In this document: one piece after another, positions 1,130 through 19,842 of the stretch
Layout: each line of letters opens with the position of its first letter
Position numbering within the stretch: the first letter of the stretch is position 1
Origin: an uncultured virus (IMG/VR IMGVR_UViG_3300044699_000169)
Lineage: Duplodnaviria; Heunggongvirae; Uroviricota; Caudoviricetes
Reading direction: 5' to 3' (one strand)
IMG/VR virus record: IMGVR_UViG_3300044699_000169
Length of the DNA stretch: 20,000 nt
Notes under the pieces: generated by a model
Told to the model about the DNA's origin: nothing
Seen by the model: only the letters and a program-made list of their open reading frames with translations
The model's database searches: none
Translations under genes and position numbers: made by a program

Positions 1130-1246
1130 CTACACCACGCTCACCGTATGGCTCACGCCGACCGTCGGCGGCGGCGGCTCGACGATCTGCGGATTCGTGG
1201 ACGATGTATCCACAACGACGATCGGGCTTATGATCACGGTGCTCAT
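1130..1246 (-). CDS. Small hypothetical protein (38 aa, MSTVIISP...PTVGVSHTVSVV)
   Basis: ATGA overlap with upstream stop; C-terminus resembles that of the next gene. Confidence 0.55.
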   Translation of the reverse strand: MSTVIISPIVVVDTSSTNPQIVEPPPPTVGVSHTVSVV

Positions 1247-4239: not shown

Positions 4240-4303
4240 GAATGACCTCTCAATCGTTCCCAAAAGAATAGCATGAAGACGCGTCCGTCTCCACGCTTAC
4301 CCG

Positions 4304-4573: not shown

Positions 4574-4800
4574 TAGATCACCACCGCCCATCCGGACAAC
4601 CGAATCAAGTCGCTGAAACTGCAATTTGCGCGCTTGCACGAAAACAGCGCCATCAGGGTTCCGTCCTCGTTGATGTTGTCAAGTTCGACCAAGACGATCC
4701 CTGAACAATCAGGGCAGGAGAAGAAAACCCTCTTCTTCCCGGTCTTCCAGAGATACCAGGTGCCCGCCGTAAGGGCAGTGTCGTATCGCAAGTCCCGCAC
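4573..4800 (-). CDS. Small zinc-ribbon protein (CPDC...CKRANC)
   Basis: AAGGAGG SD; two Cys pairs. Confidence 0.75.
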   Translation of the reverse strand: MRDLRYDTALTAGTWYLWKTGKKRVFFSCPDCSGIVLVELDNINEDGTLMALFSCKRANCSFSDLIRLSGWAVVI

Positions 4801-4904
4801 TTCTTGGGCCTCCTTAACCAGAAGGCCCCCGGTCGCATGTTCATTTTACGAGAACCTGAGCTCGAGAGCTAGATTCGAAGAGAAGAGGACTGGCGTGAGA
4901 TTTT

Positions 4905-5254
4905 TGGTGGAGGCGGCGGGAGTCGCACCCGCGTCCTGGAGAGATTCACGAAGGCGTCTACGCGCGTAGGCGGCGATTTGTTCTCGGTCTCGGGACGATC
5001 ACCGCCGATCTTCCGTCGACCATATTCCGGATTGTTTCTTGGAAACCCTTTCCCGGACTCTTCGGGCTTCCCAGCCGATTTTTAACGTCGCATCCCGCCG
5101 ATCGGCGTAAGCTGGCGCGACGTCGCGGTCAGGCCGCGAGGGACAGCTGGCGCTTGCCAGTTAGGGTTTTGGTCTCGTTTTTACGCAGCCTCGAGACCGA
5201 CTGCGGCGCGCGGCTTGTCCGATCCGCACTCCAGTCGAAAACTAGTTCGCCCCC
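4905..5254 (-). ncRNA. ssrA: tmRNA, tag (A)GKRQLSLAA
   Basis: 5' GGGGGCG pairs with 3' CGCCTCC-ACCA (G3:U70); T-arm; pk1 (GCAGTC/GGCTGC, GGTCTCG/CGAGACC); TAACT then GGC AAG CGC CAG CTG TCC CTC GCG GCC TGA; 350 nt. Confidence 0.95.
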
Positions 5255-5312
5255 GGTTTAGAAAGATCGACGCTCGGACGTTTTCGTCCAAGCAGTTTAA
5301 TGTTCTTCTGTT

Positions 5313-5742: not shown

Positions 5743-6354
5743 TCAGGGTTCGAGCTCGACCTCCCAGTATGCACGGCCGAGGAACTGCTCCCAGCTCTCG
5801 CGCCGGGCCTTGGGATGGACCTGGGCGAGCGTCTTCCAGCTTGGCTTCTTCGGCGTCTTGCGAGGAGTCATCCCGGCCTGCTCGAGCGTCTTGTCGGCCT
5901 TGCGCTTGTTGCACTCGACGCACGCGAGCAGACAGTTCTCCCAGGTCGACGTCCCGCCGCGGCTCCGAGGAATCACATGGTCGATCGTGAGCTCCTCCGG
6001 ACCCGGCTGCTTCCCGCAGTACTGGCAGGTGTATCGGTCGCGCTTGAAGATGTTCTTCCGCGAGAAGACCACCGACCGCTCGCCACGTCCTTCGTACTCC
6101 GTGAGGACGACCACCTCGGGCGGGACGATCGCCAGATGCTGGGAGCGGATCAGGCCGTCGCCGACGACCTTCATCGCCTTGGAGACTTCTCCCCAGGAAA
6201 TCAGGTCATGCCGGTCGAACGTGGCCGGGTCGATGACGAAAGCCGATCCCTTGGCGACCAGGCCGATCGCGTCCTTGACGGACGTCGTCTGGATGGGATC
6301 CCAGCGCCGGTTCAGCACCAGCACCGTGCGGTCGAGCGCCTTCAAGGCCTCCAC
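5743..6354 (-). CDS. HNH endonuclease (McrA-like, 203 aa)
   Basis: VLVLN...RD.YTCQYCG...TIDHVIPRSRGG...WEN...C..CN motif; AAGGAGG SD before GTG 6354. Confidence 0.92.
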   Translation of the reverse strand: MEALKALDRTVLVLNRRWDPIQTTSVKDAIGLVAKGSAFVIDPATFDRHDLISWGEVSKAMKVVGDGLIRSQHLAIVPPEVVVLTEYEGRGERSVVFSRKNIFKRDRYTCQYCGKQPGPEELTIDHVIPRSRGGTSTWENCLLACVECNKRKADKTLEQAGMTPRKTPKKPSWKTLAQVHPKARRESWEQFLGRAYWEVELEP

Positions 6355-6410
6355 GGGCCACCTCCTTGCAGACCTGAGAAAATCGGGCTGGAACGATTCT
6401 ATCTCGATTC

Positions 6411-6485
6411 TGGTACCCCGGCCAGGAGTCGCGCCTGGACTTGCGGCTTCGGAGACCGCCGTGCGATCTGTTACACCACCGGGGC
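6411..6485 (-). tRNA. tRNA-Arg(CCG)
   Basis: Cloverleaf, loop CT-CCG-AA, CCA end. Confidence 0.9.
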
Positions 6486-6746
6486 CTGCTCGAGGTATTC
6501 GACGATCACGTCTCCGTGGCATGACATCGGATGGCAGTGGCATCCGAGCTTTTTCCCACGAAGCGCTTCCACATTGGCGCGGAAGGCGTGATCGTTCTTG
6601 ATCTTGAAGTTGAAATCGGCCCGGTAGAGCCGAATCACCTCTTGGCGATCACCATCCGGGCCAAGCATGTACGGATTCCCGAACGTGGATCCGCGTCCGA
6701 TGTAGACGTCGCAGGGGCTGTACCGAATATTGACGACTTGAGTCAC
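6471..6746 (-). CDS. DUF4326 family protein
   Basis: DVYIGRGS.FGNPY...LRGKKLGCHCHP..CHGDV motif. Confidence 0.85.
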   Translation of the reverse strand: MTQVVNIRYSPCDVYIGRGSTFGNPYMLGPDGDRQEVIRLYRADFNFKIKNDHAFRANVEALRGKKLGCHCHPMSCHGDVIVEYLEQAPVV

Positions 6747-6765
6747 CGTACCCAGTATACAATCT

Positions 6766-6841
6766 TGGAACCCCCACCAGGAGTCGCACCTGGACCTCGC
6801 ACGTTCGAAGCGTGCGATGCGATCTGCTACACCATGGGGGC
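6766..6841 (-). tRNA. tRNA-Arg(TCG)
   Basis: Loop CT-TCG-AA, CCA. Confidence 0.9.
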
Positions 6842-6844
6842 GTG

Positions 6845-6919
6845 TGGTCTCCCAGGAGGGAATCGAACCCTCACCTCCACCTTCGCAGAGTGGCGGGCAA
6901 TCCGTTACCCCACCGGGAG
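6845..6919 (-). tRNA. tRNA-Arg(GCG)
   Basis: Loop CT-GCG-AA, CCA. Confidence 0.88.
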
Positions 6920-6927
6920 ATGAATCT

Positions 6928-7001
6928 TGGAGCCCCCGCCCGGAGTCGCACCGGGCCTTGCGATGTAGGAGATCGCCGGGCGTCTACTACCCCACGGGGG
7001 C
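6928..7001 (-). tRNA. tRNA-Arg(CCT)
   Basis: Loop CT-CCT-AC, CCA. Confidence 0.88.
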
Positions 7002-7002
7002 T

Positions 7003-7079
7003 TGGTCAGGGACCCCGGACTCGCACCGGGCCTATGCCTGCTTCCAAGGCAGGTAGGGCGCTATCTCCCCATGTCCCTG
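7003..7079 (-). tRNA. tRNA-Pro(TGG)
   Basis: Loop CT-TGG-AA, C1:G72, CCA. Confidence 0.88.
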
Positions 7080-7085
7080 AAATAT

Positions 7086-7161
7086 TGGTGGGCCGTGCGA
7101 GTGTCGATCTCGCGTCAGGCGTTTATGAGACGCTCGCTCTTTGCCGTTGAGCTAACGGCCC
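7086..7161 (-). tRNA. tRNA(CAT), probably Ile2 (lysidine)
   Basis: Loop CT-CAT-AA; C4:G69 and C5:G68 TilS-type determinants. Confidence 0.8.
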
Positions 7162-7171
7162 TCGAGAATAT

Positions 7172-7251
7172 TGGTCCGGGCGGCAGGATTTGAACCTGCG
7201 TTACTCCTGTATCCGAAACAGGCGGGTTAAGCCAGGCTACCCCACGCCCGG
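7172..7251 (-). tRNA. tRNA-Pro(CGG)
   Basis: Loop TT-CGG-AT, CCA. Confidence 0.9.
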
Positions 7252-7259
7252 ATGAAGTT

Positions 7260-7337
7260 TGGTACACGGGGCGGGATTCGAACCCGCACTACCGACGTTC
7301 TCAGCGTCGTGACTCCTGCCAGTTGGTCTACCCGTGC
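7260..7337 (-). tRNA. tRNA-Leu(GAG), short variable loop
   Basis: Loop CT-GAG-AA, CCA. Confidence 0.9.
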
Positions 7338-7426
7338 AAGTGTTTTTCGAGTAACTTTTTTTGCCCTTCTGGCTCACTTTTGAACAACATACCTTCCCGG
7401 AGAGAGGGGCCCAGTTCCCTATCTCT

Positions 7427-7471
7427 GAGGCCGCAGGGATCGCCAGACCTCTGCGGCCTCGTTTTTTTTTT
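7427..7471 (+). terminator. Plus-strand intrinsic terminator (antisense to the array)
   Basis: GAGGCCGCAG...CTGCGGCCTC stem followed by ~10 T. Confidence 0.65.
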
Positions 7472-7544
7472 GGTGCCCCGCGAGGGAGTTGCACCCCCAT
7501 CACCTGTATGTGAGACAGGCATTCTGCTGTTGAAATAGCGGGGC
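7471..7544 (-). tRNA. tRNA-Val(CAC)
   Basis: Loop CT-CAC-AT, CCA. Confidence 0.9.
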
Positions 7545-7545
7545 T

Positions 7546-7628
7546 TGGTGCGGTCGAGAGGATTCGGACCTCCACCCTTTCGGACTGGCTTCTGAGACCA
7601 GCGCGTCTACCAGTTCCGCCACGACCGC
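7546..7628 (-). tRNA. tRNA-Leu(CAG)
   Basis: Loop CT-CAG-AA, variable arm with GAAA loop. Confidence 0.92.
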
Positions 7629-7636
7629 AAATCTTT

Positions 7637-7712
7637 TGGTGGGCCTGGAGGGATTTGCACCCCCAAAATCTCGCTCCTAAGGCGAGCGCGTATGCTGTTC
7701 CGCCACAGGCCC
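7637..7712 (-). tRNA. tRNA-Leu(TAG), short variable loop
   Basis: Loop CT-TAG-GA, CCA. Confidence 0.9.
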
Positions 7713-7716
7713 GGGA

Positions 7717-7793
7717 TGGTGCCGCCGGCGGGACTCGCACCCGCAAGATCCCGGTTTTGAATCGGGCGCGTCTGCTAGTTGCGCCACGGCGGC
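7717..7793 (-). tRNA. tRNA-Leu(CAA), short variable loop
   Basis: Loop TT-CAA-AA, CCA. Confidence 0.88.
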
Positions 7794-7800
7794 AAATTAT

Positions 7801-8172
7801 TCAGGCGGAAGAAGCTCTCCAAGCCCTGTTGTATGCAACGCTGACTTCCCGGCATGGTGTACAACGACAGCCTCTACGATATCCGGTTCTCGTGCCGTGC
7901 CGAATTGGCCTCCAGCGTTCTTTGGCAGTCTTCTTTCGGTGGCACCGATCGCAAAGTACTTGGCACTTTGTAAGCTCCGCGTTTCGCCTGGCTTCGGACC
8001 AAGACCAGACCCGATGGGTTACTTTTCTGGAAGGATCTTTATGATCAACCTTCAGATCCCTCCAGGATCCACAGTGCCTACATGGACCATTCTTCTTGAT
8101 CCACGTTGATTTTCGGCGAGCGATCCATTCACGCTGGTATGACCGTTGCTGCCGGACACTTCCATAAGGCAT
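7801..8172 (-). CDS. Small HNH endonuclease with C-terminal HGT...GCRC..C Zn module
   Basis: CRHCG...VDHKDP...KCQVLCDRCH motif; SD and TACAAT upstream. Confidence 0.85.
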   Translation of the reverse strand: MPYGSVRQQRSYQREWIARRKSTWIKKNGPCRHCGSWRDLKVDHKDPSRKVTHRVWSWSEARRNAELTKCQVLCDRCHRKKTAKERWRPIRHGTRTGYRRGCRCTPCREVSVAYNRAWRASSA

Positions 8173-8232
8173 GAAACCCCCTCAACCCCACGATGCTGGG
8201 ATTGTACAGGAGGATCCGAAAGAACTCAATTT

Positions 8233-8320
8233 TGGTGCGCTCGGAGGGACTTGCACCCTCAAAAGCCCGGGTAAGAGCCGGGGGGCTGTCGATTTCCGCG
8301 GGGTCGGACGTGTTAAGCGC
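8233..8320 (-). tRNA. tRNA-Lys(CTT), 5' half disrupted
   Basis: Intact anticodon arm (CT-CTT-AC), T-arm and ACCA; D-arm region replaced by duplicated sequence. Confidence 0.6.
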
Positions 8321-8454
8321 ATCCTGCGGTGTTCAGACAAACCTCATTGGAGTCGATCTTCCGCGGGGCTTCCGGACGTGTTAAGCGCATCCTGCAGATA
8401 TGTTTTCCTGCAGGATCGCCCGGAGTCCCTCGAGGGATCGACTTCGAAATTTTC

Positions 8455-8529
8455 TGGGTGGCCTCCGGAGGATTTGCAACCCCATCCCCCGGGTAAAAGC
8501 CGGGTCATCTGCTGTTGATCTTCGGAGGC
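8455..8529 (-). tRNA. tRNA-Lys(TTT)
   Basis: Loop CT-TTT-AC; small indels near the 3' end. Confidence 0.8.
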
Positions 8530-8546
8530 GGATCGGGGAGATGTTT

Positions 8547-9315
8547 TTAAGCGGGAGATTTTCCGTCCGGGCAGCAGTAGACATCGCTCGGAGGGAGAGT
8601 TCCCGTGAGACGAATGCCGATAGAAGGGTCGCTGCCCCCTTGAGCGGTCCACCAAAGTTCACAACCGCAAACACAAAAGCTGGGCCGAATGGCGCTGGCA
8701 CAATGACGCCGCCAACAACGAGCGGGATCATGACCTGTCGATGTATAGAGTTGGAATCCCAAGCAGGGAAACGTTCAGCCCACCGTATGGCCCGCACCGT
8801 TTCCCTTTGGCGTCCAGGTGCCGTTGTAAACCGTTGTCCCGCCGATCTGAACGAACGCAGTGCCGTCGCCGCGCAATGGATTCCGGCGATTCCGTTTCCC
8901 GTCGAATCAATAGGTCCCATGCCGTACTGCATGTTCGGCGATACGATCAGCGGCCCTGGAACTTCCTTGAACGCACCTGTACTGAAATCCCAACGCCGGG
9001 GAACTCCGAGAGGCGGCTTGAAGATTACTGAGGCACCAGAATCCGGATCCATCAAGACGTTCTGGCCCAGTGAAGACTACGCTTCCGACTACTGTCGCCC
9101 ATCCGCAGTTTCCCGCCTCGTCACAGCCCTTAAAAACATTCGCTGAAGAGATTTGCCTCTCGGCAGGAAATCGCAGGAGCTGAACCGCGAGCGGATGAGC
9201 CTGACGGCCATAGCCCGCTCGCGGGACCTCCCAGAGGAGTGACCAGACGCCTTGGGACGCATCGTCCAGATATGGCACGAACGAAATTTACGGGGCAGTA
9301 CTTTCTTCCGGCCAT
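8547..9315 (-). CDS. Frameshifted ~255-aa protein: Cys-containing N-terminus plus beta-rich domain
   Basis: Hand-joined frames read MAGRKYCP...LFSECF/KGCDEAGNCGW.../LRGDGTAFVQIGGTTVYNGTWTP.../LNVSLLGIPTLYID/...DVYCCPDGKSPA*; ~6 single-base indels; TAGAGT 6 nt before ATG. Confidence 0.55.
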
Positions 9316-9356
9316 GAGACTACTCTACCCCTGCAGAAGAGAAGTTTCAAAGCATT

Positions 9357-9432
9357 TGGGTAGCCCGCGTCGGAGTCGCACCCGACATCCTCTGATCGAA
9401 AGGCAGAGATCCTACTGTTAGACGAGCGGGGC
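9357..9432 (-). tRNA. tRNA-Glu(TTC)
   Basis: Glu-type D-arm, TTC anticodon; homopolymer indels. Confidence 0.75.
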
Positions 9433-9440
9433 CATGATCG

Positions 9441-9640
9441 GTTCCACAAGGGGGTGGCCTGGTTCGCCATCTGACGATGGTTCGTCACCCTTGCTCCGGG
9501 CAGCGTGGACTATGTACACTGCCGTCCCGGGGGGCCGCTTATTCTGCCTCGACGACCTACCTCGCGATCTGCGCCCTTTCGGCGCGGCCGATAGATCGTT
9601 GGAATTCGATTCCCGCGCGGCAGGCCACCCTCTTGTGGGA
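9441..9640. ncRNA. Candidate ~200-nt structured RNA
   Basis: 20-bp closing stem TTCCACAAGGGGGTGGCCTG/CAGGCCACCCTCTTGTGGGA enclosing several hairpins; no convincing ORF. Confidence 0.55.
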
Positions 9641-9718
9641 AACGAAAGTAAGATCTCCTGGTGTTTTGGGATCTGGGTTGTAGCTAAAATTCTTCCTGAA
9701 GCTCGAAAGGAGAGCGGA

Positions 9719-10217
9719 ATGTTCCAGGAAGACCTTCTTGAGACAGCTCCCGTTTCAGGGATCCCCGTTCACGCGCACCCGCATGGGCCAGAATGGACCG
9801 CTCCCCGATGTGCCTGCCCCGGAACCCGCACCGATGCCGGAACCTGAACCCGCGCCGGAGCCCGCTCCAGAACCGGAGCCTCTCCCCCTTCCCCCTCCTC
9901 CTCCCCCAGCAGACTGCAAGCGCCTCGGAGTTCCCTTCAGAGAGAACGGATCGTGCCTCCAGCTCTTCGAATGCAAGCAGCCGGATGGAACGATCACCTA
10001 CAAGAAGGAGCCCGCAAGCTGCCCTCCTCGGCCTCGTCCTCCGATCTACTACTTTCCGTACATTCCCCCGATCTACTACTCGCCCTACCCTCCAGAATCT
10101 CGGGAAGCGGCTTTCGAATTCGATGCCGGAGAGAAGAAGACCACGATCGAAGAAGCTGCGCCATATGCTCTCGGCGCCGTCGGGATCGCGGCCGCGCTCT
10201 ACGCGATCTTCAGCTAA
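9719..10217 (+). CDS. Pro/Glu-rich protein with C-terminal membrane anchor and ...RMGQ leader
   Basis: ORF 9738..10217; AAGGAG SD at ATG 9719 implies a 1-nt insertion error (MSRKTFLRQLP...); TAAAAT -10 at ~9685. Confidence 0.75.
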
Positions 10218-10220
10218 ATC

Positions 10221-10294
10221 TGGCAGGCCGCCAGGGATTCGCACCCTGTCCGCCGGTTTGAAGGACCAGCATCCTACTCATAGACGAGCGGCCC
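10221..10294 (-). tRNA. tRNA-Glu(TTC)
   Basis: Loop CC-TTC-AA (C33), GCCA end. Confidence 0.82.
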
Positions 10295-10299
10295 AAGAT

Positions 10300-10373
10300 T
10301 GGTAGCCTCAGCGAGATTCGCACTCGCTCCTGCACCTTGAGAGGGTGCCGACCTACTCATAGTCGATGAGGCC
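10300..10373 (-). tRNA. tRNA-Glu(CTC)
   Basis: Loop CT-CTC-AA. Confidence 0.9.
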
Positions 10374-10374
10374 G

Positions 10375-10450
10375 TGGTACCCCCCGGCAGGAATTGCACC
10401 CGCACTTCCGAGGTAGAAGCTCGGCGCGCTATCTGTTACGCGACAGGGGC
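10375..10450 (-). tRNA. tRNA-Arg(TCT)
   Basis: Loop CT-TCT-AC. Confidence 0.88.
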
Positions 10451-10455
10451 AAGAT

Positions 10456-10541
10456 TGGCACCACGGGTAGGATTCGAACCTACATACTCTTTCGAGCGCC
10501 TCATTAACAGTGAGGTGGGCTACCGATTACCCGACCGTGGT
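10456..10541 (-). tRNA. tRNA-Asn(GTT) with long variable arm
   Basis: Loop CT-GTT-AA; V-arm GCTC-GAAA-GAGT. Confidence 0.88.
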
Positions 10542-10542
10542 A

Positions 10543-10618
10543 TGGAGCCGGTGGCGAGCTCTGCCCTCGCCGCCTCCGAGTTACGAACTCGGCGCTCTGC
10601 TGAATGAGCTACACCGGC
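10543..10618 (-). tRNA. tRNA-Thr(CGT)
   Basis: Loop TT-CGT-AA. Confidence 0.9.
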
Positions 10619-10628
10619 TTGAAGTTTT

Positions 10629-10703
10629 TGGAGCACCGTCCGGGGATCGAGCCCGGTCATGACCGCTTTGCAGGCGGCCGCGTTCCCATTTCGCCAACGG
10701 TGC
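10629..10703 (-). tRNA. tRNA-Cys(GCA)
   Basis: Loop CT-GCA-AA, U73. Confidence 0.9.
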
Positions 10704-10706
10704 AAG

Positions 10707-10782
10707 TGGTAGCGGGAGGGGGAGTTGAACCCGCCGTCTCGGAGTTATGAGCCCCGCGTGATGACCGTATCACTACCCCGCA
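10707..10782 (-). tRNA. tRNA-fMet(CAT)
   Basis: 1:72 mismatch, G-rich anticodon stem, loop CT-CAT-AA. Confidence 0.85.
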
Positions 10783-10859
10783 TCGGAGATCGCCGACCGG
10801 AAGCCGTCGTGCTGAGCACGCTATCCTGGCTCGATCGAACGACTGGTGACCTTCAATAT

Positions 10860-10950
10860 TGGCGGAAGGTGCGAGAGTCGAACTCGCCGCCCGTCTTAGG
10901 GGCCCGTGTTTAGCAAACACGTCTCGCTAACCGATATCGAGCTACCTTCC
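10860..10950 (-). tRNA. tRNA-Ser(GCT)
   Basis: Loop TT-GCT-AA, long V-arm, G73. Confidence 0.9.
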
Positions 10951-10951
10951 A

Positions 10952-11039
10952 TGGCGGAGGCGACAGGAGTCGAACCTGCACGGCCGGTTAAAGCCGGCTC
11001 GCTTCCAACGAGCTGGGCCTGCCAGTGCCCAACGCCTCC
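10952..11039 (-). tRNA. tRNA-Ser(GGA)
   Basis: Loop TT-GGA-AG, long V-arm. Confidence 0.9.
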
Positions 11040-11113
11040 ATGAGGCCGGACTTGATGGATCCAGCTCGAGGGCGAAATCACAGAGAAGCTCGCCCACCAT
11101 CTCTGATCAGTTT

Positions 11114-11201
11114 TGGCGGAGACGGCGTGACTTGCACACGCGCTCCCTTTCGGGGTCCACCGCTTTCAAGGCGGGGCGGCACGCTCACTGCCTTCGTCTC
11201 C
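11114..11201 (-). tRNA. tRNA-Ser(TGA)
   Basis: Loop CT-TGA-AA, long V-arm. Confidence 0.88.
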
Positions 11202-11204
11202 GTG

Positions 11205-11283
11205 TGGTAGAATTTTCACAGCCTTCGAAAGGCGTTTCCCTCTCCCGAGCCCAGGCACTTCGCCTGGGCTCGAATTTTTTTTT
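11205..11283 (+). ncRNA. Candidate antisense-oriented sRNA unit A (extended -10, ~60-nt RNA, terminator)
   Basis: TGgTAGAAT at 11205-11213; hairpin, CT-rich linker, CGAGCCCAGGC/GCCTGGGCTCG stem and T-run. Confidence 0.55.
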
Positions 11284-11376
11284 GGCGGAGAGCTGAGGTC
11301 TTGATCCCCATGCCCGGTTGTGCCGGGCACCATCCCGTTTCGAGCGGGCGGCGAGTTCTCACTCGCTTAACTCTCC
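11283..11376 (-). tRNA. tRNA-Ser(CGA)
   Basis: Loop CT-CGA-AA, long V-arm. Confidence 0.88.
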
Positions 11377-11377
11377 A

Positions 11378-11452
11378 TGGTACCAGCCGACGGATCTGCC
11401 CCGTCACTTTCGGCTTATGAAACCGACGTCATTCTCGTTAGACCAGGCTGGC
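11378..11452 (-). tRNA. tRNA-Met(CAT), probably elongator
   Basis: Loop TT-CAT-AA. Confidence 0.82.
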
Positions 11453-11458
11453 GGATCT

Positions 11459-11534
11459 TGGTAGAATTTCTCCTATACATACCGCCTTTGGGCCAGGGGA
11501 ATAGAGATCTCCATTCTCCTGGCCTTTGTTTTTT
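11459..11534 (+). ncRNA. Candidate antisense-oriented sRNA unit B
   Basis: TGgTAGAAT at 11459-11467; ~17-nt single strand, then GGCCAGGGGAAT/ATTCTCCTGGCC stem and T-run. Confidence 0.55.
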
Positions 11535-11535
11535 C

Positions 11536-11610
11536 TGGAGCTGGCGACCGGTCTTGCACCGGCATCTGTCCGCTTACAAAGCGGGGGCTCTGCTGTTGAG
11601 CTACGCCAGC
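11536..11610 (-). tRNA. tRNA-Thr(TGT)
   Basis: Loop TT-TGT-AA. Confidence 0.9.
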
Positions 11611-11613
11611 GTG

Positions 11614-11671
11614 TGATACAATCCGATCACTAGACCCGCCCAGGGCCCGGGGTTGTTCCCCGGGCTTTTTT
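11614..11671 (+). ncRNA. Candidate antisense-oriented sRNA unit C
   Basis: TGaTACAAT at 11614-11622; short leader, GCCCGGGG/CCCCGGGC stem and T6. Confidence 0.5.
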
Positions 11672-11676
11672 ATTTC

Positions 11677-11752
11677 TGGAGCCGGCGGCGGGTGCTGCCC
11701 CCGCACCTCGGCATTACCAATGCCGCATTCAGAGCTGCTAAACTACGCCGGC
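11677..11752 (-). tRNA. tRNA-Thr(GGT)
   Basis: Loop TT-GGT-AA. Confidence 0.88.
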
Positions 11753-11864
11753 GTGAACAACGGGAGCGGGGCCCGGGTCAGCCCCTCGCGAAGGCGCACA
11801 CCCTCGATCCTTGCCAGCCCGAGCCCCGCCACCAGAGTTAGGGGTCTGAGTGGTCCGGTCGATT

Positions 11865-12063
11865 TCAGTGTACACCGCCGATGAATCTGCTGAAGGCGTA
11901 AAGGACGAGCGCTGCGAGGACCGAGGATCCAGAGCCAGCATCCGAGCGGCATCCGCGACACCATCCCGCTTCCGTCGTAGGGCCTATCGGGAGGTTTCCT
12001 GGAGGTCTTCTCCTGGCGCTGCATTTCCGCAGCACGTCTCAGGATCTCTTCCTTGCGACTCAT
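11865..12063 (-). CDS. Small membrane protein (~65 aa; one apparent indel)
   Basis: MSRKEEIL...CWLWIL continues after a 1-nt shift as VLAALVLYAFSRFIGGVH*; TAAGAT 6 nt before ATG. Confidence 0.6.
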
Positions 12064-12081
12064 GGAAGCATCTTACAAGAT

Positions 12082-12155
12082 TGGTGGGCACGGCTGGAAT
12101 TGCACCAGCATCTCATCCATGTCACGGATGCATTCTGCTTTTGAAATACGCGCCC
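12082..12155 (-). tRNA. tRNA-Val(GAC)
   Basis: Loop GT-GAC-AT. Confidence 0.88.
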
Positions 12156-12158
12156 GAA

Positions 12159-12460
12159 CGAAGCGTTCGCTGACCTCGGTTTAGCCCCCACACTCGCCTG
12201 CTGGACGCTTTAGCCGGTACTTCAGAGCCCGCGCTCCCTTTATGGCGTCTCTCGCTTTCGCGGCAGGGCTGACACAAATCTTGGAAGCTCTTCACTTCCC
12301 CGGCCCGGCCATGATCATCTCCAAAAGGCATGTGGTCGAATAGCGGACCCGAAGGCCCTGCCACTCCTTCGTCCTCCGAGGCGGCTTGAGACATGGAGAC
12401 TTACGTGGGTCGTTTCGCGCCGTGATCGCGTCGACTTTCACCGACAGACCGAACGCTTCG
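12159..12460 (-). ncRNA. raiA motif RNA
   Basis: 11-bp P1 (CGAAGCGTTCG/CGAACGCTTCG); blocks GGTCTGTCGGTGAAAGTCGA, GAAACGACCCACGTAAG, CCTGCCGC-GAAA-GCGAGAG and TCCAGCAGGCGAGTGTGGGG...GGTCA match the raiA-motif consensus as I recall it (not searched). Confidence 0.85.
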
Positions 12461-12466
12461 AAGATC

Positions 12467-12543
12467 TGGTCGGGCTCCGCGGACTTGCACCGCGCTTACT
12501 CCTGCACCCCAAGCAGGCGGGTCGCTATCTACCCCTGAGCCCG
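12467..12543 (-). tRNA. tRNA-Pro(GGG)
   Basis: Loop TT-GGG-GT. Confidence 0.88.
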
Positions 12544-12753
12544 TTATGGATCAAGACTTCGGTGCATGGCGTCCTTCATGCGCTGACGATATTCGTCCCA
12601 ACGCTTGGTCTTCTTGGGGCACACGGCGCAGGCGATCGCTGCCTTGAGCGTGGAGCTCCAGACCCAGTGATGGATCCCGAAGACGCAAAGCAACCTGGAG
12701 AGCCAATTGAATTTCGAGCTCTCAACTCTCCAGGACGGATCGACATGAGGCAT
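12544..12753 (-). CDS. Small phage protein (69 aa; RLLC.FGIH.W...C..C, DUF1660-like)
   Basis: ORF track; TACAAT 7 nt before ATG 12753. Confidence 0.65.
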   Translation of the reverse strand: MPHVDPSWRVESSKFNWLSRLLCVFGIHHWVWSSTLKAAIACAVCPKKTKRWDEYRQRMKDAMHRSLDP

Positions 12754-12776
12754 CGTCCCCATTGTACATCGAATCT

Positions 12777-12850
12777 TGGAGGGACCAGTGGGAGTCGAAC
12801 CCACCCTGGCCGGGTCACAGCCGACCGTGCCGCCGCAACACTTTGGCCCC
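12777..12850 (-). tRNA. tRNA-His(GTG)
   Basis: Loop CT-GTG-AC; no encoded G-1, U73. Confidence 0.85.
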
Positions 12851-12858
12851 ATAAGATT

Positions 12859-12933
12859 TGGTCGGCGTGGATGGTTCCGCCCCATCTTCTTCCGGTTATC
12901 AACCGGATGCTCTAGCTACTGAGCTACACGCCG
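12859..12933 (-). tRNA. tRNA-Ile(GAT)
   Basis: Loop TT-GAT-AA. Confidence 0.9.
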
Positions 12934-12943
12934 ATGAAAATCT

Positions 12944-13017
12944 TGGACGGGGTGACCGGTAATGATCCGGCTTCTCCTCCTTGGCAAAGAGGCGCACTAC
13001 CTTTGTGCTACACCCCG
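12944..13017 (-). tRNA. tRNA-Gly(GCC)
   Basis: Loop TT-GCC-AA, U73. Confidence 0.88.
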
Positions 13018-13027
13018 AAAAATTTTC

Positions 13028-13106
13028 TGGTTGCCCGGGAAGGAATCGAACCTTCGTCCACCCGCTTCAAAGGCGGAGCTCCGATACCAACACAGAGTGC
13101 CGGGCA
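13028..13106 (-). tRNA. tRNA-Gln(TTG)
   Basis: Loop CT-TTG-AA, U1:A72. Confidence 0.88.
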
Positions 13107-13107
13107 A

Positions 13108-13200
13108 TGGTGGGAGCTGGAGGAGTTGAACCTCTCGTCCTTAACCGCCGCTCTTGTTTTGGGACAACGGTTTTACAGACCGCCGAGCGGACCAGCGCCC
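13108..13200 (-). tRNA. tRNA-Tyr(GTA), lacking a local D-arm
   Basis: Loop CT-GTA-AA, T-arm, ACCA; only ~10 nt between acceptor and anticodon stems. Confidence 0.75.
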
Positions 13201-13209
13201 AGGGAAATT

Positions 13210-13285
13210 TGGTGGATCCGGCGAGCTTTGCTCTCGCTACCTCCTGCTTGCAAAGCAGGCGCTCTCCTGATTGAGCTACGGACCC
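13210..13285 (-). tRNA. tRNA-Ala(TGC)
   Basis: Loop TT-TGC-AA, G3:U70. Confidence 0.92.
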
Positions 13286-13292
13286 GAAAGAT

Positions 13293-13367
13293 TGGTGGAC
13301 CCAGGCGGTTCCGCCCCGCCGTCTGCCGATTGCGAACCGGCCGCTCTCCTGATTGAGCTATGGGCCC
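13293..13367 (-). tRNA. tRNA-Ala(CGC)
   Basis: Loop TT-CGC-AA, G3:U70. Confidence 0.9.
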
Positions 13368-13443
13368 GTAGCAGAGGCAGGATTTGAACCTGCAAGCCCC
13401 AGGTTATGAGCCTGGTGAGGTCACCGGATGCCTCTCCTCTGCA
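13368..13443 (-). tRNA. tRNA-fMet-like(CAT), no full CCA encoded
   Basis: Loop CT-CAT-AA, U1:U72 mismatch. Confidence 0.8.
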
Positions 13444-13448
13444 AGATT

Positions 13449-13522
13449 TGGTGGATCCAGGGAGAATCGCACTCCCGCCTCGAGCGTGCCACGCTCGCGT
13501 CCTCCTGCTAGACGATGGACCC
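13449..13522 (-). tRNA. tRNA-Ala(GGC)
   Basis: Loop GT-GGC-AC, G3:U70. Confidence 0.9.
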
Positions 13523-13597
13523 TGGTGCCGGCCTCCGGTGCTGCCCCGGACGCCTCCCGCTTTTCAGACGGGCGCTCTACTGCTGAGCTAGACCGGC
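13523..13597 (-). tRNA. tRNA-Phe(GAA)
   Basis: Loop CT-GAA-AA. Confidence 0.9.
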
Positions 13598-13768
13598 GAG
13601 TAATTCTTCTGCCCGAAGCACGATCCCGAGCGCGTAGGCCCAACGTCTGAACCCTGGAATCTCGAGCTCGTATCTTTCGATGATCGTTTCCCCGGCCCTC
13701 CAGCCGTCTCTCCGGATCGTCCACCCATACTCGGTGAGCGCCTGGATCCGCTTCTCCCGATCGTCCAT
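13577..13768 (-). CDS. Small hypothetical protein (63 aa)
   Basis: GGAGGTG SD; stop lies inside tRNA-Phe. Confidence 0.65.
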   Translation of the reverse strand: MDDREKRIQALTEYGWTIRRDGWRAGETIIERYELEIPGFRRWAYALGIVLRAEELLAGLAQQ

Positions 13769-13857
13769 GCAGCACCTCCACAGGTATCGCGTCTGGATCG
13801 AGAGGGGTGTGACAAAGAATGAAAAATAGGCTAGAATCCCCCGGCAAGGGGGAACTT

Positions 13858-14179
13858 ATGAGCGAACTGCTGCAGGTCACGGACAAGAACTTCGACGAGG
13901 CGCTCAAGGCGCCGCTGGCGATCATTGAGTTCTGGGCGCCCTGGTGCCCGGGCTGCAAGGCCGCCAAGCCCACGATCGCCAAGATCGCCGGCGAGCTCCA
14001 AGGTCAGGTGCTCGTCGTCGGAGCCGACATCGACGAAGCGCCAAAAGCCACCGAGAGGCACGAGGTCACCTCGATCCCGACGCTCGTCTTCTTCAGGGAC
14101 GGCAAGGAGTTCTACCGCATCGACGGGACGACTCCTACCGGCGCCTCATGCCCGACATCAAGAGCCGATTCGGATCTGA
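13858..14179 (+). CDS. trxA: Thioredoxin (WCPGC); 3' end uncertain because of indels
   Basis: VTDKNFDE...EFWAPWCPGC...SIPTLVFFRDG motifs; TAGAAT -10 and GGGGG SD. Confidence 0.88.
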
Positions 14180-14183
14180 AGAT

Positions 14184-14259
14184 TGGTTCCCACGCCAGGA
14201 TTCGAACCTGGAATCTCCACGGTCAGAACGTGGCGTCCTACCGGTTAGACGACGTGGGA
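14184..14259 (-). tRNA. tRNA-Gln(CTG)
   Basis: Loop TT-CTG-AC. Confidence 0.92.
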
Positions 14260-14344
14260 GTAAAGGGCGACACGCACCAGCGAGCGCGCGTTCGACTTGT
14301 CGGTGCAGGCTCATCGCGCGGAGCCCGTTACATCGCCCGAAGCT

Positions 14345-14420
14345 TGGCGCCCCTGATGGGATTCGAACCCACGGTCTCCTCCGTGACAGGGAGGCGGGGA
14401 CTCCACTCCCCTACAGAGGC
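14345..14420 (-). tRNA. tRNA-Asp(GTC)
   Basis: Loop CT-GTC-AC, G73. Confidence 0.92.
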
Positions 14421-14431
14421 GTTTTCAATTT

Positions 14432-14505
14432 TGGCATGCCGGAGAGGAGTCGCACCTCTACCCGCTGACTTGGAAACAGCGATGCTGCTGCTACACCACC
14501 GGCAT
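14432..14505 (-). tRNA. tRNA-Trp(CCA)
   Basis: Loop TT-CCA-AG, G73. Confidence 0.85.
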
Positions 14506-14506
14506 G

Positions 14507-14581
14507 TGGAGCGGGCAGCGGGACTTGCACCCGCGATCTTCTCCTTGGGAAGGAGACGCGTTGCTTCTACGCTACGCCCGC
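14507..14581 (-). tRNA. tRNA-Gly(CCC)
   Basis: Loop TT-CCC-AA, U73. Confidence 0.92.
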
Positions 14582-14584
14582 ATG

Positions 14585-14658
14585 TGGACCGCCTGACCGG
14601 AGTCGCACCGGCATCATCTGGGTGGAAACCAGACGCTCTGCTGTTGAGCTACAGGCGG
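14585..14658 (-). tRNA. tRNA-Gly(TCC)
   Basis: Loop TT-TCC-AC, U73. Confidence 0.9.
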
Positions 14659-14677
14659 ACGAAAGGCGCGTCACCGC

Positions 14678-14706
14678 TTGAAGATTTCATCCCCCTCGCG
14701 TATACT
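14678..14706 (+). promoter_or_regulatory. Sigma70-like promoter, antisense to the array leader
   Basis: TTGAAG-17 nt-TATACT. Confidence 0.65.
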
Positions 14707-14712
14707 CGCTTC

Positions 14713-14967
14713 CCGAGCGTGTGACGGCCTGGCATTGAGGTCGGGGAGGCCCACCCTTCCCGGATGGGCCTCCCCTTCCGATCTTTGTCGTTCCAGCCCG
14801 ATTTTCAAGTGCGGCGCGCGCCAACGCGCCGCGGCTTCCTGGCTCAGGGGCCCGGCCGGAGCCGATGGCGTCCTGAGTCCCTGGTATCCGCCCACCGACC
14901 TTCCAAGGTCGGTGGGTACAACAAAAAAACCCCCGCGTCCTTTCGGGCGCGGGGGTTTCAGTTTTTT
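14713..14967 (+). ncRNA. Candidate ~250-nt multi-hairpin RNA
   Basis: Follows the promoter; four strong hairpins, then the bidirectional terminator. Confidence 0.5.
14923..14958 (-). terminator. Attenuator terminator upstream of the tRNA array (bidirectional)
   Basis: AAACCCCCGCGCCC-GAAA-GGACGCGGGGG-TTTTTTT. Confidence 0.85.
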
Positions 14968-14977
14968 CGAGCTCTTG

Positions 14978-15139
14978 TTACATCACCATCGCCCCCGCGC
15001 CCGTCTGTTCGATGGTTCGATTCCCGGCGGGCTTGCTGCACGTCGCCGGGGAATACGAACCCACGAACAGAGACCAAGCCTGCCGATGGAGGATCTCCAT
15101 CGTTGGCCTTTGGTCTCGGACGCAGGGTAGTGATCTCAC
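14978..15139 (-). CDS. Putative attenuator leader peptide (53 aa, all 20 amino acids)
   Basis: AAGGAG 11 nt before GTG; MRSLPCVRDQRPTMEILHRQAWSLFVGSYSPATCSKPAGNRTIEQTGAGAMVM*; 39 distinct codons; overlaps antiterminator 14992-15002. Confidence 0.75.
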   Translation of the reverse strand: MRSLPCVRDQRPTMEILHRQAWSLFVGSYSPATCSKPAGNRTIEQTGAGAMVM

Positions 15140-15180
15140 GGAAGGTCCGTCTCCTTGTTCGGTGGTCCTGTTACATGAAC

Positions 15181-15209
15181 AACGTAGCCGCCGAAAGGTT
15201 CGGTGTCAA
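15181..15209 (-). promoter_or_regulatory. Sigma70-like promoter of the tRNA operon
   Basis: TTGACA-17 nt-TACGTT with an upstream T-tract. Confidence 0.8.
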
Positions 15210-15228
15210 GCGGAAAAAAAATCGAATT

Positions 15229-16035
15229 CTAGAAGGCGCCAGGACGACGCACGAGATGGACCTGGCCGAGCATTGCCCGCCCCATCGTGAAAGGGGTCGC
15301 CGTCGTCATCGGCGTCGTCAAAGCCGACGATACGAGACCCGACGAAACACACATGCCGCCGCGGACGAGCCTCGCGGTGCCTGCCGGCAACCGCTAGTTC
15401 TCCAGTCAACGCTGGCGACCGGTGGCGGAGTTTCGATGAGCTCGGCGGCTCAGGCGAGGGACTGGCTCGCCCGTCGGATACGGAATCTCCTCGGGCCACT
15501 CGTTCAATTCGTGCGGCGCAGTGCTGGGGCCTCCAGTCGACGGAAGGAACATCCAGGGGGCTGAGTTGCAATTGCTCTTCGAGCGAAGTCGATGGGATTT
15601 GGAATTTCCTGGAGGCCAGTTCGTAGCCAGACTCCGTTCCGAAATCCACGGGCGCAGTGTTCCATTTCTCTTCAAGAGCGGCGATCTTATCGAGACACCC
15701 GTTGTAGGCGTCCACCGCATCGGTGTAAGTCTGATATTCCGTATCTCCAGATTCTTCTCTGTCGATAGTAATGGCTCTTGTGCGTCCTCCATGTTCGCTG
15801 TAAGGATCTCGCATTCCTGTTCTTTTCCTTGAATTTTCGAGGCGTGGAGCGCCCTGCGCTCCATCTCTCTGGCGACTCCTCGGAAAATGGAGCGTGAAGG
15901 AGGTATCTCTTCGGGACTGGAGCTGGCTCTACCGGTAATGCGATGGTACGCGCCCCACGGATCCGTGAATTCGACTTGACCCAAAGACCGAGATCCGGGA
16001 ACTCTGAGAGGAACCCGACCCAAGAACGGGCGCAT
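15229..16035 (-). CDS. Hypothetical protein with MRPFLGRVPL...SLGQ leader, multiply frameshifted
   Basis: GGAGG SD; coding signal passes between ORFs 15406..16035 and 15206..15814. Confidence 0.5.
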
Positions 16036-18465: not shown

Positions 18466-19842
18466 TCATGGGAGCACAATGATGTCCGAGAGTTCCTTCT
18501 CCCAGGCAATCTGCTCAAGACGAAGCGGGTGCTCGTGGAACTCGCTCGGATCGTGGTCCCACATAAAGATCTCCGGCTTGGGATCGGATGGGCCGGAAAG
18601 CTCCGGAACGATCGGCTCCTCGGCCTCATCCTCTTCAGCCTCAGCCGCCTTGCTCCGCATGAACGACCCAGTCCCCGCGCACGGCTTTCTCCCAGTTCGC
18701 CTGGAACCTGGGACGCTCTTTGTTGAACATGGCCCTCGGGCGCCGCGACGAACATCTCCTCGAGCGTGGGATAGACGTCTGGCTTCCGCCGGCGCACGTA
18801 GACGCGGGGGATCTCTCCCTCGTGGCTGATCTTTCCGTAGGTCGAAAGCTTGGCCTCGATCGTCTGGCGATCCCCTTCCTCGGCAATGATGACGCTCCGA
18901 TCGGCATGGGCCTTCTGGGTGTAGATCCGGCGGACCCGGTAGACCGCCCAGGGCCAGCCGTTCAGCATCTGATCGAACATCGAAAGCGCGTCGTAATCCT
19001 CGACCTCCCTGGCGATGCTCATCAGGCTCTTGGTCGAGTAGAGCGTCATGCGCGGATTGAGCGCCATCGAGACGAACTCGATGAAGAGGCTGAAGGCTGC
19101 GCGATCCGGAAACTGCTGAAAGCGGACGAGCACGGGCTCCTTCCCGGCCGCGAAGGGGCAATAGGCGCAGGCGCTCTTGGGCCAGTTTTCCCCCGGTGAC
19201 GCTGCGGATGTAGTCCTCGCAAACTTGACGGCTCCATCCCCAGTCGTGCATGAGCGGATAGATCGACGTTTTCTGGCCGACCGGCCATTTGATGGCCGAG
19301 TAGCTCTGGTCCCGGACAACGCGCCGGGCCTCCTCGGCGTTGAAGCCGATCGCCTGAACGAATGGCTGCCCGTGGACCTCACGCTCGATCCAGGCGTCCA
19401 AAGGCCAACCCTTCGACTTGATCGAGCAGAGCCTTCTCGATCCGGCGACCTGGGGAACGGTGCCGGCGGCGAGGAGCTCGTCGGAGAGCTTGTAGGCTCC
19501 CTCAAGCATGAGGGTATTCGGAGATCTTGAATCGTCGAGGACCGTCATAGGTTCGGTCTTCGACTTCCGGGCGACCTGAACGAATCGGATTCCGTGTCTC
19601 CGAAGCCTGGGAAAGATGTGCGTCTCGATCAGACGCTTCAGGTCCGGAAACTCGTCCCCGGTCATGGCCGTCACGACCGTCAGATCCTTGAGGTCGAACG
19701 ATCCGTTCCCCTGGTAGGTGAAGCTTGGTGGATCCATTCCCTCGGCGACGCTGTAGACGCGAAACGACCTCGAGGCTGGGTTTTCAAGCCAATGAAGCAG
19801 AATGGCCGTGCTGTCCACGCCCATTCCGTAAGAGAGAATCAT
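18466..19842 (-). CDS. PP-loop PAPS reductase/QueC-like protein with acidic tail, ~2 frameshifts
   Basis: SYGMGVDS PP-loop, CSIKSKG, IGFNAEE..R, YPL..WGWSR..C, KSACAYCPF motifs. Confidence 0.75.
   Translation of the reverse strand: MILSYGMGVDSTAILLHWLENPASRSFRVYSVAEGMDPPSFTYQGNGSFDLKDLTVVTAMTGDEFPDLKRLIETHIFPRLRRHGIRFVQVARKSKTEPMTVLDDSRSPNTLMLEGAYKLSDELLAAGTVPQVAGSRRLCSIKSKGWPLDAWIEREVHGQPFVQAIGFNAEEARRVVRDQSYSAIKWPVGQKTSIYPLMHDWGWSRQVCEDYIRSVTGGKLAQERLRLLPLRGREGARARPLSAVSGSRSLQPLHRVRLDGAQSAHDALLDQEPDEHRQGGRGLRRAFDVRSDAERLALGGLPGPPDLHPEGPCRSERHHCRGRGSPDDRGQAFDLRKDQPRGRDPPRLRAPAEARRLSHARGDVRRGARGPCSTKSVPGSRRTGRKPCAGTGSFMRSKAAEAEEDEAEEPIVPELSGPSDPKPEIFMWDHDPSEFHEHPLRLEQIAWEKELSDIIVLP

Follow-up and report, generated by a model that had tools for sequence, protein, structure and literature searches.

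Of the bacterial RNAs without a known biochemical function, raiA, also called ModT, is one of the best conserved and most abundant (PMC10861870, PMC11706538, PMC12968392). The available text of the raiA papers describes it as an RNA of Bacillota and Actinomycetota, in agreement with what the preliminary description of the DNA analysed here had stated. Chromosomal copies lie after comFC in 74% and before raiA/hpf in 66% of cases, and the analysis of these neighbourhoods gave "no unifying theme", with prophage genes appearing in the neighbourhood table only incidentally (PMC10861870). Knock-out of raiA caused defects in sporulation and aggregation (PMC10861870), while in a modT knock-out 75 of 90 tRNA loci were up and the growth transition was delayed (PMC11706538). 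Binding by KhpA-KhpB has been published for four chromosomal raiAs (PMC12968392). The published knock-outs link the process served by raiA to the change from growth to stationary phase, as well as to how abundant tRNAs and the 5S RNA are.

Other RNAs that accompany tRNAs offer partial parallels. With the tmRNA of large actinobacteriophages, an RNA of host type that is related to translation has likewise been copied into the tRNA array of a phage, and the 20,000-nucleotide stretch of DNA analysed here (the window) has a tmRNA gene as well; the mechanism of tmRNA is established, unlike that of raiA. The small stable RNAs species 1 and 2 of phage T4 (rnaC and rnaD) are co-transcribed with the T4 tRNA cluster and cut out by tRNA-processing enzymes, which is the same processing logic as we propose below for the raiA of the window, the RNAs themselves being unrelated to raiA. 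GOLLD is reportedly found in tRNA arrays of Mycobacterium. ROOL and GOLLD resemble the RNA of the window in being large structured RNAs among phage or array tRNAs, often near tRNA islands (PMC12286853, PMC5737381), but they are mostly phage-associated and form multimeric cages, whereas raiA is known as a monomer that is encoded in single copy on chromosomes (PMC12286853). The three are separate Rfam families without a clan, and no sequence or model relation connects them.

The RNA of the window shares with the chromosomal raiA/ModT the arm formed by P1a, GU, P1b, GGU and P1c, the GAAA junction, P3a/P3b, P4, P6-P8 and the blocks at both ends. It differs in lying between the tRNAs of an array, in having about 90 extra nt in P5 and the PK1 strand, and in its changed linker. 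The usual neighbourhood, after comFC and before raiA/hpf, is absent; the neighbours are tRNA genes, and no ComF, RaiA or KH domain was found among the 41 window ORFs scanned with Pfam. We found no description of a phage-borne or tRNA-array raiA in the available text of the raiA literature (PMC10861870, PMC11706538, PMC12968392, PMC5737381, PMC12286853). In that text the word 'phage' occurs once in PMC10861870, in a methods reference, and not at all in PMC11706538 or PMC12968392; in PMC5737381 phages are mentioned only for ROOL and GOLLD; and a raiA model was run over phage genomes in PMC12286853, with no phage raiA reported in the text covered. Within the literature covered, the window RNA adds to a known RNA family a new structural variant, carried by a phage or array. 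We consider it of moderately high interest because its context bears on an open question about a highly conserved orphan RNA. The presence of raiA next to tRNAs in the arrays of two unrelated lineages is a new and sharper contextual clue, which points to tRNA and translation homeostasis, and this context agrees with the increase in tRNAs that the modT knock-out shows and that has had no explanation.

Identity of the RNA and its tRNA array

The preliminary description had recognised a raiA-motif RNA, closed by an 11-bp terminal helix, between a tRNA-Pro and a tRNA-Val. A covariance-model search with Rfam 15 (cmscan, gathering threshold) bore this out, with a significant match to RF03072 (raiA) on the minus strand that extended over the full length of the model (positions 1-209 of 209) and scored 104.3 bits, the cut-off being 101.3 (E 5.4e-25). 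Despite a margin of only 3 bits over the cut-off, the match is far beyond chance, as its E-value of 5e-25 indicates. The terminal helix was also confirmed, as its two strands read from the sequence are perfect reverse complements that extend the 9-bp P1a by 2 pairs, and ARAGORN called the two tRNA genes on either side (Table 1). Judged by the model, the window RNA is a diverged member of the raiA (ModT) family that is predicted to be structurally intact.

Table 1. Coordinates of the raiA-type RNA, its elements and its surroundings in the window.
Feature	Position	Strand	Basis
Entire raiA-type RNA with its 11-bp closing helix P1	12159..12460	-	Rfam match 12161-12458
P1a 5' strand, 9 bp of the model and 2 extra pairs	12450..12460	-	covariance match and sequence
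P1a 3' strand	12159..12169	-	covariance match and sequence
Conserved 5' core: GU bulge, P1b, P1c, GAAA junction J1 (no P2), P3a/P3b and PK1 loop	12409..12449	-	model alignment
P5 stem (7 bp) around a branched insertion of 70 nt (12324-12393) that contains a UUCG-capped hairpin	12317..12400	-	model alignment, fold
PK1 3' strand, split by an inserted hairpin (12281-12305)	12278..12308	-	own reading of the alignment
Single-stranded linker, conserved motif UAGNNGUAAG not kept	12269..12277	-	model alignment and motif comparison
P6, short GAAA-capped P7, P8 domain	12197..12267	-	model alignment
Conserved 3' core: P4 3' strand, PK2-forming linker, P1c and P1b 3' strands, GGU bulge	12170..12196	-	model alignment
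tRNA-Pro(ggg), upstream neighbour	12467..12543	-	ARAGORN only; cloverleaf fold, encoded CCA
tRNA-Val(gac), downstream neighbour	12082..12155	-	ARAGORN and Rfam tRNA model; cloverleaf, encoded CCA
tRNA array, about 43 genes, 8.2 kb	6411..14658	-	35 by ARAGORN and 8 by Rfam tRNA model (one at threshold)
tmRNA gene	4905..5254	-	ARAGORN and Rfam, 123 bits
HNH homing-endonuclease-like gene inside the array	7801..8172	-	phrog_4234, E 4e-39
Second HNH endonuclease gene, array edge	5743..6543	-	profile matches

The spacers around the RNA are short, with 6 nt from the CCA of tRNA-Pro to P1 and 3 nt from P1 to the first base of tRNA-Val. Because the ends of the RNA lie this close to tRNA ends, its release by tRNA processing is possible, which lends support to the earlier suggestion that processing of the flanking tRNAs could generate them. 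The tRNA-Pro has an unusual T-loop and was not reported by the Rfam tRNA model even at E 0.1. Comparison of the raiA locus by blastn with 50,697 phage records and with 72,556 plasmids gave nothing at E 1e-5 and short chance matches at E 10, and the raiAs of two loci described below, L168 and L165, had no match in the phage records. As blastn is blind to diverged structured RNAs, these results are weak evidence of absence.

The surroundings combine dense same-strand tRNAs, a tmRNA, two HNH genes and PHROG matches, features of phage or mobile tRNA arrays. The HNH gene within the array matched 141 phage records by tblastn, 132 of them actinobacteriophages (Mycobacterium 121, Streptomyces 7, Gordonia 3 and Mycolicibacterium 1), many of 155-160 kb. 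The array that had been described as a mobile tRNA operon does look mobile or phage-like on these grounds. Other matches in the window were to phrog_2355 and to the PAPS-reductase-like phrog_424, and a thioredoxin gene is on the plus strand. A 458-aa protein has 343 homologues in metagenomes, without informative names, and gave nothing in the phage records or IMG/VR by tblastn and a scan for relatives. When positions 10200-14700 were compared with phages by blastn, only single tRNAs matched.

Two parts of the preliminary description found no support. A putative translation-stress attenuator had been placed upstream of the RNA, but shuffles of the 233-nt spacer at 12544-12776 fold just as well (z -0.09), and no terminator-like site was found on the minus strand at 10000-15355. 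The proposed link to translation rescue had been drawn from the neighbourhood alone and is unsupported. There was likewise no promoter-like site on the minus strand over the same range, and the sole minus-strand terminator-like site found (15368-15356) is beyond the tRNA array. The lack of promoter-like and terminator-like sites fits one long precursor, of which it is no proof.

Architecture and conservation of the RNA

The elements of the RNA were mapped according to the architecture scheme in the Results of PMC12968392. The window raiA belongs to the P2-less subtype with P8 and has 298 nt, compared to the usual ~210 nt. Its length of ~300 nt on a model of 209 positions is due to three insertions, in P5, in what we read as the 3' strand of PK1 and in the P8 region, the last adding 6 nt. 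The preliminary description had noted UUCG- and GAAA-capped insertions; the UUCG hairpin is indeed part of the P5 insertion, whereas the GAAA hairpin is the normal P7 stem in a short form and no insertion.

The closing stem has a GU bulge in its 5' strand, a GGU bulge in its 3' strand, a P1a of 9 bp extended to 11, a P1b of 3 bp and a P1c of 5 bp. A three-part P1 with GU and GGU bulges is a feature of raiA, in which junction J1 holds either a P2 stem or a GAA(A) tetraloop-like turn, the P2-less subtype being known (PMC12968392). In the window raiA, J1 is GAAA at RNA positions 20-23, with no P2. All 11 pairs of P3a/P3b (with an A-rich internal loop) and P4 are standard both in the window and in its relative L182, described below, and P3 is also present in the minimum-energy fold of the window raiA. 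P6 has 5 bp, P7 3 bp with a GAAA loop, and the base of P8 4 bp. In chromosomal raiAs of Actinomycetota MAGs the 5' and 3' core blocks have the same or almost the same sequence; the MAFFT alignment with these copies was unreliable in the variable middle, and only its ends were used.

The pseudoknots were less straightforward. For PK1, in which the P3b loop pairs with the strand that follows P5, 3 of 7 pairs are non-standard in the covariance model's own alignment. If the 3' strand is read as split, 3 + 3 pairs form around a hairpin of ~25 nt, one of which shows a two-sided change in L182, a comparison of two sequences only. The two pairs assigned to PK2 were wrong, being non-standard in both the window and L182, and were excluded from the pair count; the sequences of the PK2 region match the chromosomal raiA copies on both sides. 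The minimum-energy fold of the whole RNA was no better than that of shuffles (z -1.07), a value that is uninformative because the RNA is pseudoknotted.

A metagenome scan with a 22-base window-type pattern identified two contigs, L181 and L182; the window-type 22-mer did not occur in IMG/VR. The raiA of L181 is 99.7% identical to that of the window and has the same tRNA order, and L181 probably represents this element in a different sample. The raiA of L182 is 78.8% identical and scores 81.6 bits, below the cut-off (E 1.7e-19). Given this score, the Rfam cut-off hides the window-type subtype, and surveys at the gathering threshold would undercount phage-borne raiA.

The comparison of the window with L182 covered 63 assigned pairs in 14 helices, of which 49 were unchanged, 3 had one-sided and 11 two-sided changes, and none was broken; the pairs were assigned by homology and derived from these two sequences themselves, the two distinct sequences of the subtype, which favours a 'paired' outcome. 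As a control, the 3' partner was shifted by 1-3 positions; this left 38-46 pairs broken and 0-2 changed on both sides. The two-sided changes were distributed over P1a (3), P4 (2), the base of P8 (3), the hairpin of the P5 insertion (2) and PK1 (1). P1a differs at 4 of 9 pairs, three on both sides and one on a single side, with all nine still paired. Two-sided differences affect 2 of the 4 pairs of P4 and 3 of the 4 at the base of P8, the two pairs of the inner hairpin of the P5 insertion that differ on both sides are still paired, and the change in PK1 is from C-G in the window to G-C in L182. All three insertions are present in L182 with different stem sequences; the stem of the hairpin inserted in PK1 is wholly different in sequence, yet the hairpin still forms.

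In the contigs of four sequencing runs, no variant fell within the 63 assigned pairs; all were in an assigned loop, linker or junction. Variant RNA positions were 202 (GAAA loop to GAGA), 165, 107 and 109 in hairpin loops and 188 in the linker, with others at 191, 73 and 74 and an insertion near 70. As far as sequence comparison can tell, the window raiA looks functional, because L182 keeps all 63 pairs, 11 of them through two-sided changes, together with the extra elements.

raiA on chromosomes, in other arrays and in sequencing runs

We searched 185,579 species genomes with a pattern that combined the P2-less 5' block with the window's P3a variant. The pattern occurred at 10 loci, all in Actinomycetota MAGs, six of which were titled Acidimicrobiia or Acidimicrobiales, three "Actinomycetes bacterium" and one "Actinomycetota bacterium". 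One locus, L173, lies in a genome flagged as unpublished, and counts are given with and without it. All 10 loci were raiA, at 126-150 bits (9 of 9 without L173), and there was a single raiA per genome in each of five such MAGs (four of four without the flagged genome). None of 15 chromosomal raiA loci of Actinomycetota had a tRNA within about 1.5 kb (none of 14 without L173). These 15 MAG copies scored 126-169 bits, compared to 104 bits for the window. The raiA of L029/L168, which is beside a low-GC prophage, scored 188 bits. A class-wide raiA search gave a match in 6 of 151 genomes, under filters that lose weak matches, and is no measure of prevalence.

A pattern scan of IMG/VR returned 38 loci, six of them raiA-like, and a revised pattern returned five. 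One of these five, L164, was a chance match. At least 119 IMG/VR stretches matched the pattern for the 5' block, and the raiA 3' block was found in none of the 80 loci fetched from among them. [quoted passage not shown] The longer record, of 33 kb, is 15% complete by CheckV, and its last 18 kb contain 25 tRNA matches. This phage has a GC content of about 36-43% and encodes NAMPT, NMN-adenylyltransferase-like, Nudix and HNH proteins. By ARAGORN, a tRNA-Ala(tgc), which folds as a cloverleaf, starts 2 nt after the L165 raiA, and a tRNA-Met lies 371 nt before it. The raiA itself has a small P2 and no GU bulge, and its linker is also changed. L165/L167 is a large phage lineage that is unrelated to the window and also carries raiA.

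The position of raiA differs between arrays. In L182 it is found between tRNA-Pro(tgg) and tRNA-Arg(cct), with a tRNA-Met before them, and the gaps to these neighbours are about 525 nt on the upstream and 134 nt on the downstream side, so that tight abutment is not universal. In the window, the homologous Met-Pro(tgg)-Arg(cct) genes directly follow one another at 6928-7161, without raiA. In addition, a 502-nt contig from RNA run X20 has an exact match to tRNA-Pro(ggg) followed by a sequence that, in our comparison, resembles the 5' part of tRNA-Val, with no raiA between them. These sequences hint that raiA may move within arrays, X20 contributing one contig.

The stretch 11900-12800 was matched at half or more of the sampled words in 14 DNA runs from 12 studies, which were soil, rhizosphere and root metagenomes. 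RNA runs X15-X20 matched small shares of it only, and the parts without coverage carry no weight either way. In RNA run X19, the sole contig on the 901-nt stretch was 260 nt long (12187-12442) and wholly inside raiA. The sole contig of run X15, which is labelled metatranscriptomic and was rated as probably DNA, was 188 nt long (12233-12419) and also wholly inside raiA. We regard the contigs of X19 and X15 as a weak hint of raiA expression; contigs from RNA libraries cannot prove transcription because such libraries can contain DNA, nor can contigs show ends.

Possible roles of the array-borne copy

The reading that we favour, with a probability of roughly 0.7, is that the window carries a functional, diverged raiA in a phage or phage-like element of soil Actinomycetota, released from a tRNA array and acting in trans. 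The RNA and its flanking tRNAs would be transcribed together into a single precursor. The 3' end of the RNA would arise just outside the 11-bp P1, through cleavage by RNase P at the 5' end of tRNA-Val, and its 5' end through maturation of the 3' end of tRNA-Pro, and the long P1 helix may protect both. The released RNA of ~300 nt could then act in trans on the host process of chromosomal raiA/ModT, if the published phenotypes are a guide, and the phage would thereby keep the translation state of the infected cell where it is needed. We link raiA to the translation machinery because this copy sits within an array of tRNAs and a tmRNA.

The linker between PK1 and P6 is where the array copies depart from the chromosomal ones. 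In our reading of the model alignment, the conserved single-stranded linker of the UUAGACGUAA type is not kept in the window, where 4 of its 9 strongly conserved letters differ. The UAGNNGUAAG motif was found in none of the four array copies (the window, L181, L182 and L165, which represent three distinct sequences from two lineages), compared to 15 of 16 distinct chromosomal loci, namely 14 of the 15 Actinomycetota loci (including L173) and the host copy in L168. The chromosomal copy without the exact motif is L188. As the conserved, exposed linker is changed in all of them, the phage-array copies may act in a modified form or as competitors, and not simply as spare copies.

Based on this difference, we tentatively put forward a bolder form of the favoured reading, in which phages of at least two phyla took raiA/ModT, a working part of the tRNA and translation economy of the cell, into their mobile tRNA sets, kept its scaffold and rewrote its linker, and so override the host's raiA-dependent run-down of tRNA and rRNA when growth ends. 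If this were true, the linker would be the functional site of raiA, the phage copies would be natural separation-of-function mutants, and the biochemical role of raiA would become directly testable. With the scaffold kept, the periphery added to and the linker changed, the phage copies are usable in complementation and competition tests.

The same loss of the linker motif could also point to an antagonist whose scaffold soaks up partners such as KhpA-KhpB and thereby blocks the raiA-dependent shift of the host to stationary phase and the fall of its tRNA and rRNA. P1 and the core helices are retained in the phage-array copies, as a decoy would need, and KhpA-KhpB bound all four of the raiA subtypes tested, including a minimal one (PMC12968392); since all four were bound, binding seems to rest on the common scaffold. 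Furthermore, late-growth tRNA levels were lowered by the wild type and not by the knock-out (PMC11706538). However, the array copies are few, a chromosomal raiA (L188) is also without the exact linker motif, and the antagonism is a prediction, all of which leads us to consider a decoy unlikely.

Returning to the favoured reading, its mobile element could instead be a chromosomal tRNA island of an uncultured actinobacterium that has its own raiA among the tRNAs. No capsid, terminase or other virion or packaging hallmark gene was found in the 20-kb window, and tRNA array units are known on mycobacterial chromosomes and plasmids (PMC5966550). Against this stand the two HNH genes among the tRNAs, one of which has its relatives mostly in large mycobacteriophages. 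A tmRNA with a near-complete tRNA set is, in addition, typical of large phages. With no tRNA neighbours at any of the 15 chromosomal raiA loci and a different slot for raiA in the related array of L182, we think a chromosomal island improbable.

Nor do we give much credence to a passenger, that is, a host raiA that was caught by chance during the shuffling of an array and is decaying without a function for the element. The low scores of the window and L182 copies, the diverged linker and the X20 contig, in which raiA is absent, are what such a copy might show. But at 21% divergence, 11 pairs have changed on both sides with none broken, the extra hairpins are kept as structures and the variants lie outside the stems; moreover, the L165/L167 lineage has a raiA of its own. 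A cis-acting riboswitch, to which the Rfam type label 'Cis-reg; riboswitch' alone points, is hardly credible and contradicted by the context, as a tRNA begins 3 nt downstream with no open reading frame to control, and action in trans has been published (PMC10861870).

Ends of raiA beside integrases and the ROOL-raiA stretch

In contigs of low-GC (~30%) temperate phages, all that is present of raiA is its final ~45 nt, flanked by the lysis genes on one side and a tyrosine-type integrase on the other, as in L166 (the same contig as L023). A related contig, L168 (the same contig as L029), carries a complete raiA directly beside the integrase, and L004 and L027 are further contigs of this low-GC set. 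Other phages have their attachment sites in tRNA and tmRNA genes, and these low-GC temperate phages look as if they use raiA, at its 3' end, in the same way.

The large ~40% GC phage of the overlapping contigs L165 and L167 has 25 tRNAs. Within L165:2480-4116 (about 25.5-27.1 kb of its longer record, G002), ROOL, tRNA-Met, an unassigned gap, raiA and tRNA-Ala follow one another on one strand, and the gap may hold an additional structured RNA. Also in this phage, ARAGORN called a tRNA whose anticodon has four bases (caaa; L170:1452-1536), possibly a tRNA of the frameshift-suppressor type.

Surroundings of raiA in the window

The pentamer CUUCG (RNA sense) stands at each edge of the raiA insert (12456-12460 and 12159-12163), and in the one RNA-run contig having the Pro-Val junction without raiA, the spacer is UCUUC. 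Recombination at a short repeat, adding or removing raiA, would fit these sequences, and so would chance.

The spacer upstream of tRNA-Pro contains a 13-bp hairpin, and its overall fold was no better than that of shuffled sequences. The spacer also contains a possible small ORF, which weakly matched phrog_15926 (E 0.008); read from an internal Met, it would encode ~69 aa and stop 1 nt short of tRNA-Pro. Positions 12626-12683 are kept in a related RNA-run contig.

Other genes and signals of the window

The 458-aa protein had no homologues among the phage records or IMG/VR searched, and 343 in metagenomes (best 64% identity). Several atypical tRNAs lie within the array: eight tRNA-model matches lacked an ARAGORN call, and seven ARAGORN tRNAs, including the raiA neighbour tRNA-Pro(ggg), went unreported by the Rfam tRNA model. 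The tmRNA gene follows ~1.2 kb past the array on the same strand. A thioredoxin gene lies in a gap of the array, on the strand opposite to the tRNAs, with a promoter-like site at 13809-13837. That strand also carries three GC-rich hairpins, strong ones with stems of 11-14 bp, each with a T run after it, inside and at the edge of the array.

Coordinates of features in the window and in other raiA-bearing contigs
Feature	Location	Strand	Remarks
Partial raiA 3' end	L166:3970-3995		integrase 4112-5311 (-)
Full raiA	L168:12-217		188 bits; contig start; integrase 325-1527 (-)
ROOL	within L165:2480-4116	as tRNA-Met, raiA, tRNA-Ala	321.5 bits
tRNA-Met/raiA gap	L165:3425-3795		371 nt
tmRNA	window 4905-5254	-	123 bits; predicted tag GKRQLSLAA
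tRNA-model match	window 8460-8529	-	no ARAGORN call
tRNA-model match	window 9361-9432	-	no ARAGORN call
tRNA-model match	window 10546-10618	-	no ARAGORN call
Hairpin, T run	window 11246-11272	+	GC-rich
tRNA-model match	window 11381-11452	-	no ARAGORN call
Hairpin, T run	window 11642-11668	+	GC-rich
tRNA-model match	window 11680-11752	-	no ARAGORN call
tRNA-His/tRNA-Pro spacer	window 12544-12776	-	233 nt
tRNA-model match	window 13213-13285	-	no ARAGORN call
tRNA-model match	window 13296-13367	-	no ARAGORN call
tRNA-model match	window 13526-13597	-	no ARAGORN call
Thioredoxin gene	window 13819-14180	+	Pfam PF00085, E 7e-22
Hairpin, T run	window 14927-14958	+	GC-rich
458-aa protein	window 18466-19842	-	PAPS-reductase-like N-terminal part (phrog_424)
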